Shown in pieces: positions 49,621 through 60,221 of a DNA stretch of 63,798 nucleotides (position 1 is the first letter of the stretch; every line of letters starts with the position of its first letter). The notes below the pieces were generated by a model. That model saw only the letters and a list, made by a program, of their open reading frames with translations. It did no database searches and had not been told where the DNA came from. The position numbers were made by a program, and so were the translations under genes. Source of the DNA: Pseudomonadota bacterium (lineage in GTDB: Bacteria; Pseudomonadota; Alphaproteobacteria; Paracaedibacterales; CAIOTO01). Where the stretch lies: positions 1 through 63,798 of the forward strand of contig JAZKAK010000012.1 of the NCBI GenBank assembly GCA_040389165.1. Direction: 5' to 3'.

Positions 49621-49668
49621 TGGTGCGCCCAAAGAGAGTCGAACTCCTAACCTTCAGATCCGTAGTCT
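49621..49668 (-). repeat. att direct repeat / 3' tRNA-Arg fragment (distal island boundary)
   Basis: TGGTGCGCCCAAAGAGAGTCGAACTCCTAACCTTCAGATCCGTAGTCT is identical to 60145-60192. Similarity stops exactly at both ends. Confidence 0.95.
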
Positions 49669-49785
49669 TAGAGTCATATGGTTACCCTCAATTACACACG
49701 TAGATAAAAAGCTCAAAAACCCTTATAAACTCTAACTTAATGCATAATTTATGTTTATGCAATCTTCCCTATTATTCTTTTTTGT

Positions 49786-49820
49786 GCTACCTATATGCTA
49801 CCTAGGATCTTCTAGGTAGC
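49786..49820. promoter_or_regulatory. GCTACCTA repeats (2 direct + 1 inverted) just upstream of int: candidate integrase arm-type sites or operator
   Basis: GCTACCTATATGCTACCTAGGATCTTCTAGGTAGC. A matching GCTACCTATGTGCTACCTAG sits at the other island end (60079-60100). Confidence 0.5.
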
Positions 49821-49832
49821 AGGATTATAGAT

Positions 49833-50987
49833 ATGGCTAAGCTAACAAAACGAATTGTTGAATCAACGTCACCGCAGGAAAAAGATATCCTTTTATGGGA
49901 TTCAGAACTAAAAGGCTTCTGCTGCAAAATAACGCCAGTGGGAAAGAGAAGCTACATGCTCTTTTACCGCACAGCAGATGGACGTCAACGAAAACCCTTA
50001 ATCGGGGCACATGGAGCCATCACGTGCGAACAAGCAAGAGATATTGCACAAAAATGGTTAAGTGAAGCAGCGCAAGGCAAAGACCCATCAGCAGAGAAGA
50101 AAGCCCTGAGAAGCAGCCCAACGATTAAAGAGCTATCACTAAAATATATGGTGGAGTACGCACCACACAAAAAAGCCTCCAGCAGTAAAGAGGATCAACG
50201 ATTATGGGACAAGCAGATCTTACCTGTTTTAGGCTCTTTCAAAGTTGCATCCTTAACAAGAGAAGATATTTTAAAGTTTCATCACTCACTAAAGCAGACG
50301 CCTATAACTGCCAACAGAGTTTTAAGCCTTCTTTCAAAAACACTGAATCTAGCCGAGCTGTGGGAATTTAGGCCTGATCATTCAAACCCTTGTCGCCACG
50401 TAAAGAAGTACGCCGAGAATAAGAGAGAACGTTTTCTTAGCCAAGAGGAAATTACACGACTTATGTCTGTATTGGATGAAGAAGAAAAAGAAGACAAAGA
50501 ATTGCCATCTGTTTTCCGCGCAATACGTTTATTGATTTTAACAGGATGTAGGTTGAATGAAGTTCTGACTTTGAGGTGGAGCGAGGTTGATCTTAAAAAC
50601 CAATGCTTTAATCTGTCTGATAGCAAAACAGGCAAGAAGACAGTGTATTTAGCACCTGCTGCCATCCAAGTGCTTAATTCAATTCCACGCATGGAGGGCA
50701 ACCCTTATGTAATTTATGGAAAGAAAGATGGAGCACATCTTGTTGGCCTGCAAAAGCCCTGGACGAGAATTAGAGAAAAAGCAGACCTCAATATAAGAAT
50801 TCATGATTTACGCCATACATTTGCTTCAGTAGCAGCGTCGAATGGCTTGTCACTGCCAATCATCGGCGCCTTGCTAGGACACAGACAGACCCAGACCACC
50901 CAGCGATATGCGCATCTTGTGGGTAAAGTACTTTTAGATGCATGTGAGATGATTGGAAAGCAACTGACCCTTGGCTCACGACATTGA
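49833..50987 (+). CDS. int: tyrosine-type site-specific integrase (P4-like, N-terminal arm-binding domain)
   Basis: The N-terminus (LTKRIVES..LLWDSELKGFCCKITPVGKRSYMLFYR) is like the DUF4102-type domain. Catalytic region: LILTGCRLNEVLTLRW, HDLRHTFAS, LGHRQTQTTQRYAH. Confidence 0.9.
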   Translation: MAKLTKRIVESTSPQEKDILLWDSELKGFCCKITPVGKRSYMLFYRTADGRQRKPLIGAHGAITCEQARDIAQKWLSEAAQGKDPSAEKKALRSSPTIKELSLKYMVEYAPHKKASSSKEDQRLWDKQILPVLGSFKVASLTREDILKFHHSLKQTPITANRVLSLLSKTLNLAELWEFRPDHSNPCRHVKKYAENKRERFLSQEEITRLMSVLDEEEKEDKELPSVFRAIRLLILTGCRLNEVLTLRWSEVDLKNQCFNLSDSKTGKKTVYLAPAAIQVLNSIPRMEGNPYVIYGKKDGAHLVGLQKPWTRIREKADLNIRIHDLRHTFASVAASNGLSLPIIGALLGHRQTQTTQRYAHLVGKVLLDACEMIGKQLTLGSRH

Positions 50988-51039
50988 CATTTTGTCGCCC
51001 TTAGGATACTATTATCTACAGCTAACCATAGAGATATAA

Positions 51040-51366
51040 ATGAATCATAAAAAAGTACAGATTTATAAAACACATAACGGCAGAGCGCCTTTTATCGATT
51101 GGTTAGAGGGCTTAGATAAAGTATCCAAAATTCGTGTACTGAAAAGAGTTTCACGTTTAGAAATAGGCAATTTGGGTGATTATAAAGTGATTGAAGCTGG
51201 ACTTTATGAATTAAGATTCTTCTTTGGCTCAGGCTATCGTGTGTACTTTGGAATGCTAGGAGATTGCGTTGTCGTGTTGTTATGTGGCGGCGACAAATCA
51301 CATCAAGCGGATGATATAAAAAAAGCAATGACTTATTGGAAGGAAGCACAAAATGAGATCATTTAA
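51040..51366 (+). CDS. type II toxin, RelE/HigB-like 'addiction module killer' (Gp49-like)
   Basis: 108 aa. APFIDWLEGLDKVSKIRVLKRVSRLEIGNLGDYKVIEAGLYELRFFFGSGYRVYF is typical of this family. 14-nt overlap with the next ORF. Confidence 0.75.
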   Translation: MNHKKVQIYKTHNGRAPFIDWLEGLDKVSKIRVLKRVSRLEIGNLGDYKVIEAGLYELRFFFGSGYRVYFGMLGDCVVVLLCGGDKSHQADDIKKAMTYWKEAQNEII

Positions 51367-51673
51367 TGAATACCTTATTGAACAATTAAAAGACCCCGAA
51401 GATGCCTGCTTTTATTTAAAAGAAGCATTACTCGATTTTGAGACAGATCATGACGCACAAGCATTTTTAAAAGCACTAAAAGATGTAACAGATGCACAAG
51501 GTGGTGTTGGCCAACTTGCTAAGAGAACGAATCTCAATCGACAGAATTTGTATAAGTTATTGTCAGCGAAGCGGCAGCCAAAAATTGAGACGCTTGGCGC
51601 AATTCTAGATGGGTTGGGTTTTCAGCTGAGTGTTGTGCCGAAGAGTAGTGCGGCAAATGTGGAATGTAGCTGA
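51353..51673 (+). CDS. HTH antitoxin ('addiction module antidote', HigA-like)
   Basis: 106 aa. GGVGQLAKRTNLNRQNLYKLLSAKRQPKIETLGAILDGLGFQLSV is an HTH plus the family-typical C-terminus. Confidence 0.75.
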   Translation: MRSFNEYLIEQLKDPEDACFYLKEALLDFETDHDAQAFLKALKDVTDAQGGVGQLAKRTNLNRQNLYKLLSAKRQPKIETLGAILDGLGFQLSVVPKSSAANVECS

Positions 51674-51768
51674 TTTGCAGGGGATCAATGATGAGATACT
51701 GCATTTGTTAAACAAGTGATTTTGGGATACTACGGAAAGATTGAAAATTATATCACGGAGAAGAGTGT

Positions 51769-58551: not shown

Positions 58552-58637
58552 TTTGTTATCCTTTTAAAAAAAATTAGTGCAATCGTAAGAGCTCCGTTCA
58601 AGTCTCAAATCACATTAACCTATACACAGATTCTCGT

Positions 58638-59054
58638 CTATTTAAAAACCTCTACTGATTCTATAACACCAGCCGCATCATAGGTAACTATATAGTTATG
58701 CATCTCATCTTGGGCGGCTAATTCAGTTGGTGTCCCTGCAATTTCCCATAGTCCAAGTGTCAGAATATCAGCAACAACATGTCCAGCAACAGCTGCATTC
58801 CTAGACCCACGCGAGTGTGCATCTGGATCCATTCTATAAATCACTCTTCGTTTGCCGCCTTCTAATGGGGAGGACATATCAGGGGCTCCTAACGTAGATT
58901 CAACTGTCATACGGGTTTGTCCAGTAGTTAGAACCTTTGGATCACCTTTATAAGTACTTCTTTTCCCTGCCATGACGGCACTACAACCATTGAGAACAAA
59001 AGCGCTTAGAAGCAAGCAAATGACGGGAGATAATTTAATATATTTCATAAACAT
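58638..59054 (-). CDS. lipoprotein (possibly a BamE/SmpA-OmlA-like fold)
   Basis: Lipobox LNGC. TTGQTRMTVESTLGAPD is reminiscent of the BamE-type G-x-T-x-x-Q-V-x-x-x-L-G-x-P segment. Low certainty on the family. Confidence 0.6.
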   Translation of the reverse strand: MFMKYIKLSPVICLLLSAFVLNGCSAVMAGKRSTYKGDPKVLTTGQTRMTVESTLGAPDMSSPLEGGKRRVIYRMDPDAHSRGSRNAAVAGHVVADILTLGLWEIAGTPTELAAQDEMHNYIVTYDAAGVIESVEVFK

Positions 59055-59109
59055 ACCTTATGTATTTCGCACATGTTAAAATCAATTACTATTTTCATTA
59101 TATATTCCT

Positions 59110-59364
59110 TTAATAACCGCGCGAGCGTTTGCGTTCTTGTTCTTCTTGATATTTACGTTCTTCATCCCGTCTTCTCTTGTAACGCTCTTCCTCCTCTTGT
59201 TCTCTCTGCCAACATTCATAATAATCTTTTGCTGAATAACAATGTGTGTATCCAATTGTAGTAGATGCACATGCAATGCCAAGTGTGAGTATTAATGTTC
59301 TTTTCATAATTAATTCTTTTCTATTTTTTGTTTTCATATAAAATACTGACGCCAGAACGTGCAT
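59110..59364 (-). CDS. small secreted highly charged protein
   Basis: Probable start at the internal Met at 59307 (MKRTLILTLGIACAST). Two Cys, then an Arg/Glu/Lys-rich tail (QREQEEEERYKRRRDEERKYQEEQERKRSRGY). Confidence 0.45.
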   Translation of the reverse strand: MHVLASVFYMKTKNRKELIMKRTLILTLGIACASTTIGYTHCYSAKDYYECWQREQEEEERYKRRRDEERKYQEEQERKRSRGY

Positions 59365-59793
59365 ATTAATAAAGGCTCAAAATAATACAACGATCCTCAT
59401 CTATACTGATATAGCGATCCAGTTGAGAATTTTCAAGTATTTTTTCGGTTAATTAATTGACGTTGGCTTTGCTAAGCCGATTGAGTTCACTGCTGACTCC
59501 CACATTTGAAACTTAAATTCTATAAAAAATTAAGTACGAACTGGATATGATAAGGTGAAACGAAAAAATTATGATAGTTGAATTTATTTCTATTTTTCCG
59601 TATTTCGTAAATTTTATTATAGAAAATCGATCTGCAAATAGCAGGCAGGCTTATAATGTTCAAACCATCGCCGGGTACTACTTAATGCTATAAATACGTT
59701 TAATGCAGTGCCACATACGTTGCTAAGCCATGCACAACTAATATATAAGTATAGCTAACAGGGAGTGTTTCCTTTCATGGGTTAATCCATCTG

Positions 59794-60078
59794 TTATTGT
59801 TGCTTGCACGCAGCTTTGACAGGATGCGGTATCGTTTTACGAGATACCCTATAACTGCGCATGATATGAGAAGACGTGCCATATTTATTGGATAGATTAC
59901 GATAGATTTTAAGTGCTTTTCCTGTTTCAGCAAAATCTATCGGGGGTGGACTTCCGAATCTAAAATAGCTTTGATGGATCTGGCGTTTGACTGGATTATA
60001 CAGGAGAAAAATTTTTGAACATCAAGGTCATCACTACGTAATTCGGTGAGCAGTCTATGCAGCGAAACTGTTTCTTCT
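59794..60078 (-). pseudogene. remnant of an HTH-containing gene, frameshifted at a C5 run
   Basis: The minus-strand translation gives ..LHRLLTELRSDDLDVQKFFSCIIQSNARSIKAILDSEVHPR*. With one extra C it continues PIDFAETGKALKIYRNLSNKYGTSSHIMRSYRVSRKTIPHPVK. There is no start codon. Confidence 0.35.
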
Positions 60079-60100
60079 GCTACCTATGTGCTACCTAGAG
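60079..60100. promoter_or_regulatory. second GCTACCTA direct-repeat pair (candidate integrase arm-type site)
   Basis: GCTACCTATGTGCTACCTAGAG lies 45 nt from the att core, in the same orientation as 49786-49807. Confidence 0.5.
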
Positions 60101-60144
60101 ATTTTTGACCAATTTAAAAACTGCTTGTAAAACCGCAGTTTGAT

Positions 60145-60221
60145 TGGTGCGCCCAAAGAGAGTCGAACTCCTAACCTTCAGATCCGTAGTCTGACGCTCT
60201 ATCCAATTGAGCTATGGGCGC
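60145..60221 (-). tRNA. tRNA-Arg (anticodon ACG), with encoded CCA
   Basis: The reverse complement folds by hand: acceptor GCGCCCA/TGGGCGC, D-arm GCTC/GAGC, anticodon stem TCAGA/TCTGA with loop CTACGGA, T-arm AGGAG-TTCGACT-CTCTT, then ACCA. Confidence 0.9.

Follow-up and report, generated by a model that had tools for sequence, protein, structure and literature searches.

The 63,798-nt stretch of contig analyzed here (the window) comes from an alphaproteobacterium near Paracaedibacteraceae and harbors a site-specific integrative element of 10.5 kb in a tRNA-Arg(ACG) gene. We lean towards reading it as an excision-competent, self-replicating element that would depend on a helper, and within this reading it would probably be a minimal phage satellite lacking capsid genes, of a PICMI-like or 'Type C PICI'-like type.

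Integration site and recombination module

The element is bounded by a 48-mer, TGGTGCGCCCAAAGAGAGTCGAACTCCTAACCTTCAGATCCGTAGTCT, that occurs as an exact direct repeat at 49621-49668 and 60145-60192 and encloses 10,476 bp of DNA. The window has no third copy with three or fewer mismatches, and 100 shuffles gave an expectation of 0 for such a repeat. ARAGORN and Rfam (68.1 bits; threshold, 29) identify the sole tRNA of the window as an intact tRNA-Arg(ACG) (60145..60221, minus strand), so the right copy, the second att core, covers nucleotides 30-77 of this tRNA, which run from the 5' strand of its anticodon stem through the encoded CCA. The left, int-proximal core (minus strand) is a displaced 3' fragment of this tRNA, lying downstream of the gene in the same orientation; a terminator-like hairpin just beyond it (49578-49559, minus strand) would fit the original tRNA terminator. 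Identity stops at once on the tRNA-body side (TAGAGTC at 49669 versus GACGCTC at 60193), and at the opposite border four of the next six bases match. The initial annotation, which had described two 48-bp att repeats, the second being the anticodon-to-CCA part of an intact tRNA-Arg, and an abrupt end of identity, is borne out. GC content is 38.6% in the element versus 42.3% in the remaining window.

Next to the left core lies a tyrosine integrase gene (49833..50987, plus strand; 384 aa) encoding Arm-DNA-bind_3, SAM-like and catalytic domains (PF13356, E=4e-14; PF00589, E=1.6e-23; phrog_1 integrase, E=2.7e-63). Its motifs are complete (TGCRLNE, KTGKK, HDLRH, LGH, RYAH) and all catalytic residues are kept. 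Both ends of the element carry arm-type sites. Specifically, two tandem and one inverted copy of TGCTACCTA[T/G] lie at 49785..49821, 11 bp upstream of the int start, and two tandem copies lie at the tRNA-proximal end (60078..60098, plus strand). The five copies of TGCTACCTA within the element are confined to these ends, and the window as a whole holds seven matches against 2.1 expected. The tandem motif recurs upstream of related int genes in five IMG/VR proviruses of ~40 kb (L122, L125, L126, L129, L130) and in a close relative, L116, whose integrase and AlpA-like protein are 74% and 68% identical.

The L116 contig reads arm, 44 bp, 48-bp tRNA-Asn fragment, 114 bp, arm and int, and includes no whole tRNA. 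This junction is collinear with the right end of the window element joined to its left end, the attP form, with the sites at 60078..60098 aligning to the left arm of L116, which could be a tandem array instead of a circle. The arm-type sites at both ends and the attP form of this relative agree with the earlier proposal that the element can still excise, and it looks mobile. A Logan contig equal to the element was rejected as a sign of excision, its break within the repeats being a k-mer graph effect only. The integrase sits at the end distal to the intact tRNA, as had been remarked, but this layout is not peculiar to this copy: it recurs within the lineage (L029, L054, L051, L117/L118). Two more distant relatives, L085 and L088, probably share it; their trimmed contigs have int at one end and their only tRNA at the other, and no repeat was found in them.

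Gene content of the element

Domain searches left the original gene list essentially intact, with corrections for the 412-aa gene and the primase reading frames. The integrase is followed by an HigB/Gp49-like toxin of 108 aa (51040..51366, plus strand; phrog_3445 'toxin', E=5.6e-26; PF05973, E=8.2e-5, at 23.0 bits slightly below the 23.9-bit cut-off) and a HigA/HI1420-type HTH antitoxin of 106 aa (51353..51673, plus strand; PF21716, E=3.1e-13, with HTH_3 and phrog_4268 matches), whose genes overlap by 14 nt. Then comes orf412 (51769..53007, plus strand; ~30% GC), previously described as an orphan. It belongs instead to a rare family with 17 homologues among 1.8 billion representatives, three of which (P0125, P0126, P0131) directly follow int with a 4-nt overlap or gap. 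Because related contigs have a fixed backbone with an orf412-family gene, always next after int, orf412 is a backbone gene and not orphan cargo. Its AF2 model is helical (pLDDT 72) with no fold match in the PDB, and the protein is a candidate integrase partner or regulator. A hairpin resembling an intrinsic terminator (53052..53080, plus strand; 11-bp stem, then a T run) closes the int-TA-orf412 unit.

A replication operon on the plus strand begins with an AlpA/excisionase-like HTH protein (53375..53626; 83 aa) that matches phrog_66 'excisionase and transcriptional regulator' (E=1.4e-7) and PF12728 HTH_17 (E=1.8e-5, 25.3 bits, slightly below the 27-bit cut-off). It is 82% identical to its L003 counterpart, and the L117 equivalent is a true PF05930 Phage_AlpA. 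The next gene, orf77 (53623..53856; 77 aa), encodes a stand-alone version of the N-terminal domain of fused Toprim_3-DUF3987/DUF927 primases; it aligns with residues 40-86 of P0010 (E=8e-5) and has tblastn matches upstream of the helicase in nine relatives (L008, L010, L012, L015, L016, L032, L092, L093, L117). A 140-aa protein (53819..54241; the frame begins at 53741 if counted from the first start codon) is homologous to the primase zinc-binding domain with its cysteines lost (NCBIfam PRK07078, positions 10-98, E=1.4e-6). It is 59-71% identical in L003, L004 and L116, and its L029 counterpart has a true CHC2 zinc finger. An ATGA overlap joins this gene to that of an intact, 765-aa fusion of a Toprim primase to a YfjI-type DUF3987 helicase (54238..56535; PF13148, E=7.2e-82; phrog_2373 helicase; primase PHROGs over residues 48-188), which matches P0002-P0005 over its full length at 60-71% identity. 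DUF3987 is a demonstrated 5'-3' helicase (PMC11724360). The overlapping primase-related frames noted earlier form an intact, translationally coupled operon and not frameshift debris, because the closest homologues have equal length and the identical split.

Downstream, the conserved orf149 (56528..56977, plus strand) contains a 63-nt tandem repeat (56604-56729) with GTCAGTAATGTCAG. L003 and L004 encode versions of its protein with 60-66% identity, and the DNA of this region, 87-89% identical to L004, is among the best-conserved stretches; the repeat region is a weak candidate for a replication origin. The operon ends with a 151-aa DUF5681 protein (57116..57571, plus strand; PF18932, E=3.6e-7), whose gene occupies the same position in the P0123, P0125, L117, L029 and L051 elements and is a backbone gene of the lineage. 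A homologue 48% identical resides in the phage-like contig L112 (TerL, ERF, SSB, endolysin), 4.6 kb upstream of TerL and not adjoining it. The genome of Salmonella phage STGO-35-1, set to begin at TerL, has a DUF5681 gene as its final CDS (PMC8954984). Sub-threshold TerS PHROG matches also point to phage, and the poor model of the protein (pLDDT 59) gave no fold match. We consider it the best candidate for a hijacking or packaging-specificity function.

A bidirectional terminator-like hairpin (57745..57767), with T runs on both strands, separates this operon from a convergent one on the minus strand. The latter encodes an outer-membrane β-barrel protein with a signal peptide (57853..58551; 232 aa; PF13505, E=1.7e-9, and PF01389), a lipoprotein with lipobox LNGC (58638..59054; 136-138 aa) and a small, highly charged secreted protein with no family match in profile searches (59110..59337; 75 aa as called, or 84 aa from the first ATG at 59364). 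The P0004 and P0123 elements have genes for OMP_b-brl proteins of 234-239 aa at the corresponding position, on the same strand, so that OMP and DUF5681 genes join orf412 as conserved across the lineage. The lipoprotein gene is 87% identical in nucleotide sequence in another MAG, where it adjoins an IS66. What may be a frameshifted gene remnant occupies ~59790-60070.

Related elements and known satellite classes

The lineage backbone comprises int, an orf412-family gene, AlpA, a swappable replicase, an ORF without assigned role and DUF5681, and is kept in six other elements, at tRNA-Thr, -Asn, -Lys and other sites. L085 and L088, related through DUF3987, are capsid-forming and PICI-like, with head, protease, portal, HNH, TerS and TerL genes. 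As predicted from the sequence at first reading, the int/AlpA-like/primase core is present, with an intact integrase, and Pfam, PHROGs and NCBIfam searches found no capsid, tail, terminase or conjugation genes in the element, nor was a terS, capsid-remodelling gene or packaging site recognized there.

PICMI satellites are defined by a mandatory trio of tyrosine integrase, AlpA-type HTH (PF05930 or PF12728) and DUF3987 primase (PMC10803314), which the element shares. In PICMIs the gene iolg overlaps or abuts int, a position whose counterpart here is the orf412-family slot; further likenesses are one gene between alpA and prim, the lack of capsid-remodelling genes and cargo at the end. However, PICMIs are six-gene elements of ~6 kb that adjoin fis in Vibrionaceae, whereas this element occupies a tRNA in an alphaproteobacterium, spans 10.5 kb and differs further in its split primase, DUF5681 gene and OMP/lipoprotein operon. 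Dependence on a helper has been demonstrated for PICMI115 and is proposed for the present element. The order int, alpA, primase-replicase and late module resembles PICIs and cfPICIs, as do a size near the PICI median of 9.5 kb (PMC10085698), typical of satellites, and the cfPICI-like relatives L085 and L088; unlike those classes, the element has no recognized terS, capsid-morphogenesis, capsid, portal, protease or terL gene. Its three generic satellite markers, int, AlpA-like and primase, make it only a 'Type C' element, which the SatelliteFinder authors deem too unspecific to call with confidence (PMC10085698).

P4-like satellites and the E. coli cryptic prophage CP4-57 resemble the element in targeting a tRNA or tmRNA, in the Arm-DNA-bind_3 domain of the integrase, and in having alpA followed by a primase/helicase gene (yfjI, a DUF3987 gene, in CP4-57) and toxin-antitoxin or defence cargo. 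Nevertheless, identity to IntA and YfjI is ~19%, E. coli AlpA has no detectable similarity, int of CP4-57 adjoins the intact target gene and not, as here, the tRNA fragment, and P4 psu, delta, sid and epsilon are missing. Gene content also likens the element to VEIMEs, small tyrosine-integrase elements with primase/helicase and AlpA that are found integrated in Alphaproteobacteria; VEIMEs, however, are defined by recovery from virus particles (PMC9618062), whereas packaging is a proposal for this element. As these classes are defined, it falls outside P4-like, PICI, cfPICI and PICMI, lacking P4 psu/delta/sid, a recognized terS, a capsid-morphogenesis gene and the fis target.

Alternative readings and proposed life cycle

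The element may instead be a fixed or decaying remnant like CP4-57, immobile and kept for its toxin-antitoxin and surface-protein genes. We regard this as unlikely: although CP4-57 has the same core order (intA-x-alpA-yfjI, then cargo), a relative, L054, has its DUF3987 gene broken in three pieces and the right end holds the possible frameshifted remnant, all backbone genes are full length compared with their closest homologues, the unselected left core is still 48/48 identical, and the arm sites kept at both ends match those of the active-looking L116. Somewhat less probable still is an integrative mobilizable element with a cryptic oriT, which would borrow relaxase and T4SS from a conjugative element in the same cell and use its own primase for establishment in the recipient. 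Conjugative elements often carry primases, amoeba-associated alphaproteobacteria often harbor conjugative systems, and Pfam and PHROGs revealed no packaging genes. Yet profile searches of the element found no relaxase, coupling protein, MobI-like or T4SS gene, replicase-sharing relatives carry capsid modules and not transfer modules, and its DUF5681 gene has phage homologues. That it is mainly an anti-phage defence island with incidental int and primase genes is very improbable, since, despite the HigBA-like pair and the type I R-M, SocA/Panacea, HipA and CdiA-like toxin cargo of relatives, PADLOC detected no defence system in the element, and it is the mobility and replication backbone that is conserved while cargo changes between elements.

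The element entered tRNA-Arg(ACG) by a tyrosine-recombinase crossover in the segment from the anticodon stem to the 3' end, regenerating the tRNA. In a helper-dependent satellite, the signal that switches on the alpA operon would most likely come from a helper phage, either infecting the cell or being induced; no helper phage lies in the window, the remainder of which resembles housekeeping genes. AlpA and Int, possibly with the orf412 protein, would then excise a 10,524-bp circle, which the split primase and Toprim-DUF3987 helicase would replicate, possibly starting at the repeats that immediately follow the helicase gene, and copies would exit the cell inside the helper's particles. The HigBA pair would stabilize the element or abort infection, and the OMP/lipoprotein operon, expressed in the integrated state, would alter the cell surface, as with lom and bor of lambda. 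The element is of an ordinary kind, from an undescribed lineage.

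Borders and gene content of the tRNA-Arg(ACG) island

The element spans 10,476 bp between two exact copies of a 48-mer, at 49621–49668 and 60145–60192, the only two recovered in a search of the whole window. No third copy occurs in the window with up to three mismatches allowed, where the chance expectation is 0. The right copy lies within the sole tRNA gene of the window, tRNA-Arg(ACG) (60145..60221, minus strand; 68.1 bits in Rfam), which is the single match of the Rfam scan, with no other RNA family detected, and the exact att repeats in this gene described in the initial annotation are confirmed. 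The location of the 48-mer relative to the tRNA coordinates places the repeat at tRNA positions 30–77; it begins on the 5′ side of the anticodon stem and runs through to the encoded CCA. The 48-mer on the left is a displaced piece of the tRNA 3′ end that lies downstream of the gene and is oriented like it. The Islander algorithm demands that an intact tRNA gene be followed downstream, on the same strand, by its cognate 3′ fragment (PMC4383910); here, the tRNA-Arg gene runs from 60221 to 60145 and the fragment from 49668 to 49621, both on the minus strand, with an integrase gene in the interval (49833–50987; PF00589, E=1.6e-23). By these rules, the element qualifies as a tDNA genomic island. 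Repeat identity breaks off immediately on the tRNA-body side, and four of the next six bases match on the opposite side. The GC content is 38.6% in the 10,476 bp between the copies versus 42.3% in the remaining window. A terminator-like hairpin on the minus strand (49578–49559), just past the left fragment, is consistent with being the terminator that the tRNA gene originally had.

The element contains three transcription units with hairpin terminators between them. Unit 1, on the plus strand, begins with int (49833–50987), whose 384-residue product consists of Arm-DNA-bind_3, SAM-like, and catalytic domains and retains every catalytic motif. This gene is followed by a HigB/Gp49-like toxin, an HI1420-type antitoxin, and orf412 (51769–53007), and the unit ends at a terminator at 53052–53080. 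The toxin and antitoxin genes have the features of a HigB/HigA-like type II system: a small toxin gene (phrog_3445, E=5.6e-26) precedes an HTH antitoxin gene (PF21716 antidote, E=3.1e-13) with a 14-nt overlap. Unit 2, also on the plus strand, encodes an AlpA/excisionase-like HTH protein, orf77 (53623–53856), a 140-aa ORF, a 765-aa Toprim plus DUF3987 protein (54238–56535), orf149 (56528–56977), and a 151-aa DUF5681 protein (57116–57571), with gene overlaps of 4–38 nt. Unit 3 lies on the minus strand, convergent with unit 2, and encodes a small charged secreted protein, a lipoprotein (lipobox LNGC), and an outer-membrane β-barrel (OMP) protein. Comparison with Pfam, PHROGs, and NCBIfam assigned none of the element's ORFs to a capsid, tail, terminase, lysis, relaxase, or T4SS family, in agreement with the earlier statement that capsid, tail, and conjugation genes are absent. 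PADLOC identified no defence system on the element, and a promoter scan performed no better than on shuffled sequence.

Within a 780-bp 'non-coding' stretch beside the putative arm-type sites of the right end, a single frameshift would link two protein-like frame pieces on the minus strand (~59790–60070) into a product of about 97 aa, which may represent a pseudogene; the merged translation matches no Pfam family. The lipoprotein gene recurs at 87% nucleotide identity beside an IS66 transposase in the MAG GCA_964830445.1 (L113/L114, 146–544). It is found there without the rest of the element, so this cargo gene also moves on its own. For annotation, the exact borders of the element are now set, the tRNA is shown to be intact, and the OMP and lipoprotein genes are shown to be mobile cargo.

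Outside the left att copy, a palindromic repeat cluster at 49330–49510 combines GGCTGTCATTCCCGC, repeated three times in tandem, with an inverted repeat of 28 nt (96% complementary); these palindromes probably give rise to the 127-aa 'ORF' at 49220–49603 as a by-product. Two neighboring autotransporter-like genes (45681–47042 and 47135–49165), whose repeats are of the NHL and PATR (passenger-associated transport) types, adjoin the element, and a related element at the P0123 locus also abuts an NHL-repeat gene, on its other side. Of ten large ORFs taken as a sample of the remaining window, some belong to housekeeping families (MurD, LptD, SurA, AtpA), the others have no match, and none matches a phage family. 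Searches for identical copies of the SSB, integrase, and NuoN proteins gave nothing or same-sample matches and provided no empty site or other strain. A metagenome scan gave no match with a single-protein query and distant relatives only with an alignment query.

Putative integrase-binding sites and an attP-type junction in a sister element

The element contains five copies of the motif TGCTACCTA(T/G), each close to one of its ends. Just upstream of int (49785–49821) lie two copies in tandem plus an inverted one, and the right end has another tandem pair (60078–60098), 46 bp from the core. The whole window contains seven occurrences versus 2.1 expected. We infer that these copies are arm-type sites for the Arm-DNA-bind_3 domain of the integrase. 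A scan of IMG/VR located the tandem motif 50–300 bp upstream of related integrase genes in several proviruses (L122, L125, L126, L129, and L130), most of them ~40 kb long. A more distant element (L117/L118), with an integrase only 28% identical, has GCTACCCCAAACGCTACCCCAAA at the position equivalent to the arm motif.

The closest view of the joined ends comes from a sister element on the Logan contig L116 (SRR29078263_44052; 17,257 bp), which is 74% identical to the window copy in the integrase, 68% in AlpA, and 59% in the zinc-binding-domain ORF. Upstream of its int gene, L116 presents, in order, tandem arms, 44 bp, a 48-bp tRNA-Asn 3′ fragment, 114 bp, and tandem arms, and no complete tRNA is found in the 13.7 kb of this contig that the search covered. 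This stretch is collinear with the right end of the window element (60040–60192) joined to its left end (49669–49840), and the conserved blocks comprise both arms and the core borders. The collinearity indicates that the two ends of the sister element are joined across one core, in what looks like an excised circle, a concatemer, or a tandem array. The initial annotation had proposed searching for reads across the circular junction; L116 is the nearest to such evidence, and it concerns a relative rather than the window copy. A Logan contig identical to the window element (L001, 100%) ends 30 nt inside each repeat. Its complete identity means that it is not independent evidence, and its ends are the expected k=31 graph break, silent on excision.

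A recurrent backbone with an exchangeable replicase

A common gene order recurs around the homologues: int, an unknown gene overlapping or abutting int, AlpA, a primase-helicase, an unknown ORF of 100–230 aa, and DUF5681, followed by variable cargo that is often on the opposite strand. The orf412 family has 17 representatives among 1.8 billion clusters, and in all three relatives looked up the homologue directly follows int, overlapping it by 4 nt at two loci (P0125 and P0126) and separated by a 4-nt gap at the third (P0131). This constant position makes orf412 a backbone gene rather than the orphan that it had first been called. It occupies the slot of the 'iolg' gene of PICMI satellites, which is needed for excision (PMC10803314). 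In the window, the HigBA pair sits between int and orf412 and has been inserted there. The AlphaFold2 model of orf412 is usable and predicts a helical protein with possible winged-helix parts; neither the sequence in the PDB nor the model in fold comparison gave a significant match, and profiles show no similarity between orf412 and the 312-aa int-overlapping gene of the related contig L003.

An OMP β-barrel gene of similar size is found in the same place and on the same strand in two relatives. Elsewhere the cargo differs: L003 has genes for HipA and a HIRAN protein adjacent to int, as well as one for a CdiA-like DNase toxin of 2886 aa, and L116 encodes a type I restriction-modification system plus SocA/Panacea. 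The L003 toxin gene (7237–15897) lies in the cargo slot, and its product combines DUF637 with a colicin/pyocin DNase domain. The target tRNA also varies, with tRNA-Arg in the window, tRNA-Asn in L116, tRNA-Thr in L117 and L029, tRNA-Ala in L054, and tRNA-Lys in L051, and the core starts near tRNA position 30 in all these elements. The placement of int beside the fragment and far from the intact tRNA, which had been regarded as unusual, is shared by the window element, L029, L054, L051, and L117/L118, and is therefore a recurrent design and no anomaly of the window copy. Two distant IMG/VR contigs (L085 and L088) probably have the same layout: int and the sole tRNA lie at opposite ends of these trimmed contigs, in which no repeat was found. 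In seven other DUF3987 elements (L015, L016, L032, L056, L066, L031, and L069), int lies next to the intact tRNA.

The 765-aa primase-helicase aligns end to end with its closest homologues (764–774 aa, 60–71% identical), conserving the Toprim acidic motifs and the helicase motifs; it has no PDB match by sequence. DUF3987 has been shown experimentally to be a 5′–3′ helicase that works with an adjacent primase (PMC11724360). Upstream, orf77 has its relatives among the N-terminal domains of fused Toprim_3 primases, and the 140-aa ORF is homologous to the primase zinc-binding domain but no longer has its cysteines; the equivalent small ORF of L029 bears a genuine CHC2 zinc finger. The overlapping ORFs could be read as a frameshifted pseudogene, a reading ruled out by conservation of the same split in L003, L004, L116, and the P0004 locus. 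The primase region is undamaged. The replicase type differs by element: DUF3987, Toprim_3 plus DUF927, or Toprim plus AAA_25. In L116, the replicase (10036–11739) has a Toprim N-terminus 51% identical to that of the window and a C-terminal AAA_25 helicase domain instead of DUF3987, a domain-level swap inside one gene. The DUF3987 gene of the tRNA-Ala element L054 (9785–11515) is in three pieces, and L054 is a decaying family member. Downstream of the primase-helicase, a 63-nt tandem repeat in orf149 (56604–56729), with GTCAGTAATGTCAG in every unit, is among the best conserved DNA relative to L003 and L004 and may serve as a replication origin that lies within coding sequence.

Relation to phage satellites

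Among the closest described groups is PICMI, defined by co-located integrase, AlpA (PF05930/PF12728), and DUF3987/DUF5906 primase genes (PMC10803314). This trio is present in the element (PF00589; PF12728 at 25.3 bits, under the 27-bit cut-off for HTH_17, with phrog_66 at E=1.4e-7; PF13148 at E=7.2e-82). However, PICMI inserts next to fis, and the element resides in tRNA-Arg(ACG) between ssb/hda-like and NHL-repeat neighbors. The integrase, AlpA, and primase-replicase of SatelliteFinder's PICI model are likewise all present, but no TerS family scores above threshold and no capsid-morphogenesis or packaging-redirection gene is matched in Pfam or PHROGs. The major capsid protein, protease, portal, head-tail adaptors, and TerL of cfPICI are all missing from the element and present in the distant contigs L085 and L088. 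In these high-GC sequences of 12–13 kb, int and a DUF3987 helicase are accompanied by a complete module (head, protease, portal, HNH, TerS, and TerL) located between the replicase and a terminal tRNA-Ser; both look like capsid-forming PICI-like satellites. Compared with P4-like satellites, the element has functional analogues of the integrase, AlpA, and α primase-helicase, but its helicase is of the DUF3987 rather than the P4 α type, its integrase matches NF007246 weakly (E=5.8e-6), and nothing in Pfam, PHROGs, or NCBIfam corresponds to the psu-delta-sid operon or epsilon. The element thus falls outside the P4-like, confident PICI, cfPICI, and PICMI (fis site) types as defined. Escherichia coli CP4-57 has the same core order (intA-yfjH-alpA-yfjI), with ~19% identity in the integrase and helicase and undetectable similarity in AlpA. 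An ICE or integrative mobilisable element is less likely, with no relaxase, coupling protein, or T4SS family matched by any ORF of at least 60 aa, although an oriT may escape sequence comparison.

The DUF5681 protein provides a link to phages. A 48% identical homologue is encoded by L112 (ERZ15185899 NODE_5), a phage-like contig of 45.5 kb and 38% GC with TerL, ERF, SSB, and endolysin genes, which is a candidate relative of a helper phage; the DUF5681 gene is the first of a rightward operon, 4.6 kb upstream of TerL. The genome of Salmonella phage STGO-35-1 is numbered from TerL, and its DUF5681 gene, the last of 88 CDSs (PMC8954984), occupies the usual TerS position. Phage synteny on DUF5681 as TerS is thus mixed, and the DUF5681 set scores below threshold against TerS PHROGs (E=0.05–0.07). 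We do not accept that DUF5681 is simply TerS, given the 4.6-kb distance in L112. The protein matched no INPHARED phage with two different queries and no PDB entry by sequence, and its poor AlphaFold2 model makes a BFVD search meaningless.

A satellite is favored by the PICMI trio, the cfPICI-like DUF3987 relatives, a size that fits the PICI median of 9.5 kb (PMC10085698), the DUF5681 links to phages, and precedents in Alphaproteobacteria, from which satellites with such genes are known (PMC9618062). Against it, the SatelliteFinder authors do not count int, AlpA, and primase alone, a 'Type C' combination of which more than 6000 were set aside in their survey (PMC10085698). The element also has no recognisable terS, capsid-remodelling gene, or packaging site, the TerS PHROG matches are sub-threshold, the DUF5681 model is poor, the L112 gene lies 4.6 kb from TerL, and no helper is seen. 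Judged from its sequence, a helper-dependent, excision-competent, and self-replicating element is well supported, and the helper of such a putative satellite would most likely be a phage, which makes the satellite reading of the initial annotation a reasonable, if putative, one. Tentatively, and with doubt, the element may belong to an undescribed family of capsid-less phage satellites composed of int, an orf412-family integrase partner, AlpA, an exchangeable primase-helicase, and a DUF5681 small-terminase-like hijacker. Such a family would parasitize phages of alphaproteobacteria that live with amoebae or protists (Paracaedibacteraceae) and would have relatives in other Proteobacteria; the cargo it delivers would be surface proteins, toxins, and defence systems.

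The element is real, precisely bounded, and apparently intact, of an ordinary kind and an undescribed lineage. Small int-AlpA-primase islands are very common and mostly unclassified; the window copy and its relatives can be recognised as a lineage, marked by a clear attP design and by two additions to the backbone, the orf412 family and DUF5681. These two proteins merit experiments on excision control and helper hijacking. The host AtpA shares 88% identity with its counterpart in a MAG labelled Candidatus Paracaedibacteraceae, and Alphaproteobacteria MAGs are next closest, which identifies the host as an alphaproteobacterium of a largely uncultured, host-associated group. If helper dependence is true, phage satellites, and the phages they imply, would extend to poorly studied host-associated alphaproteobacteria.
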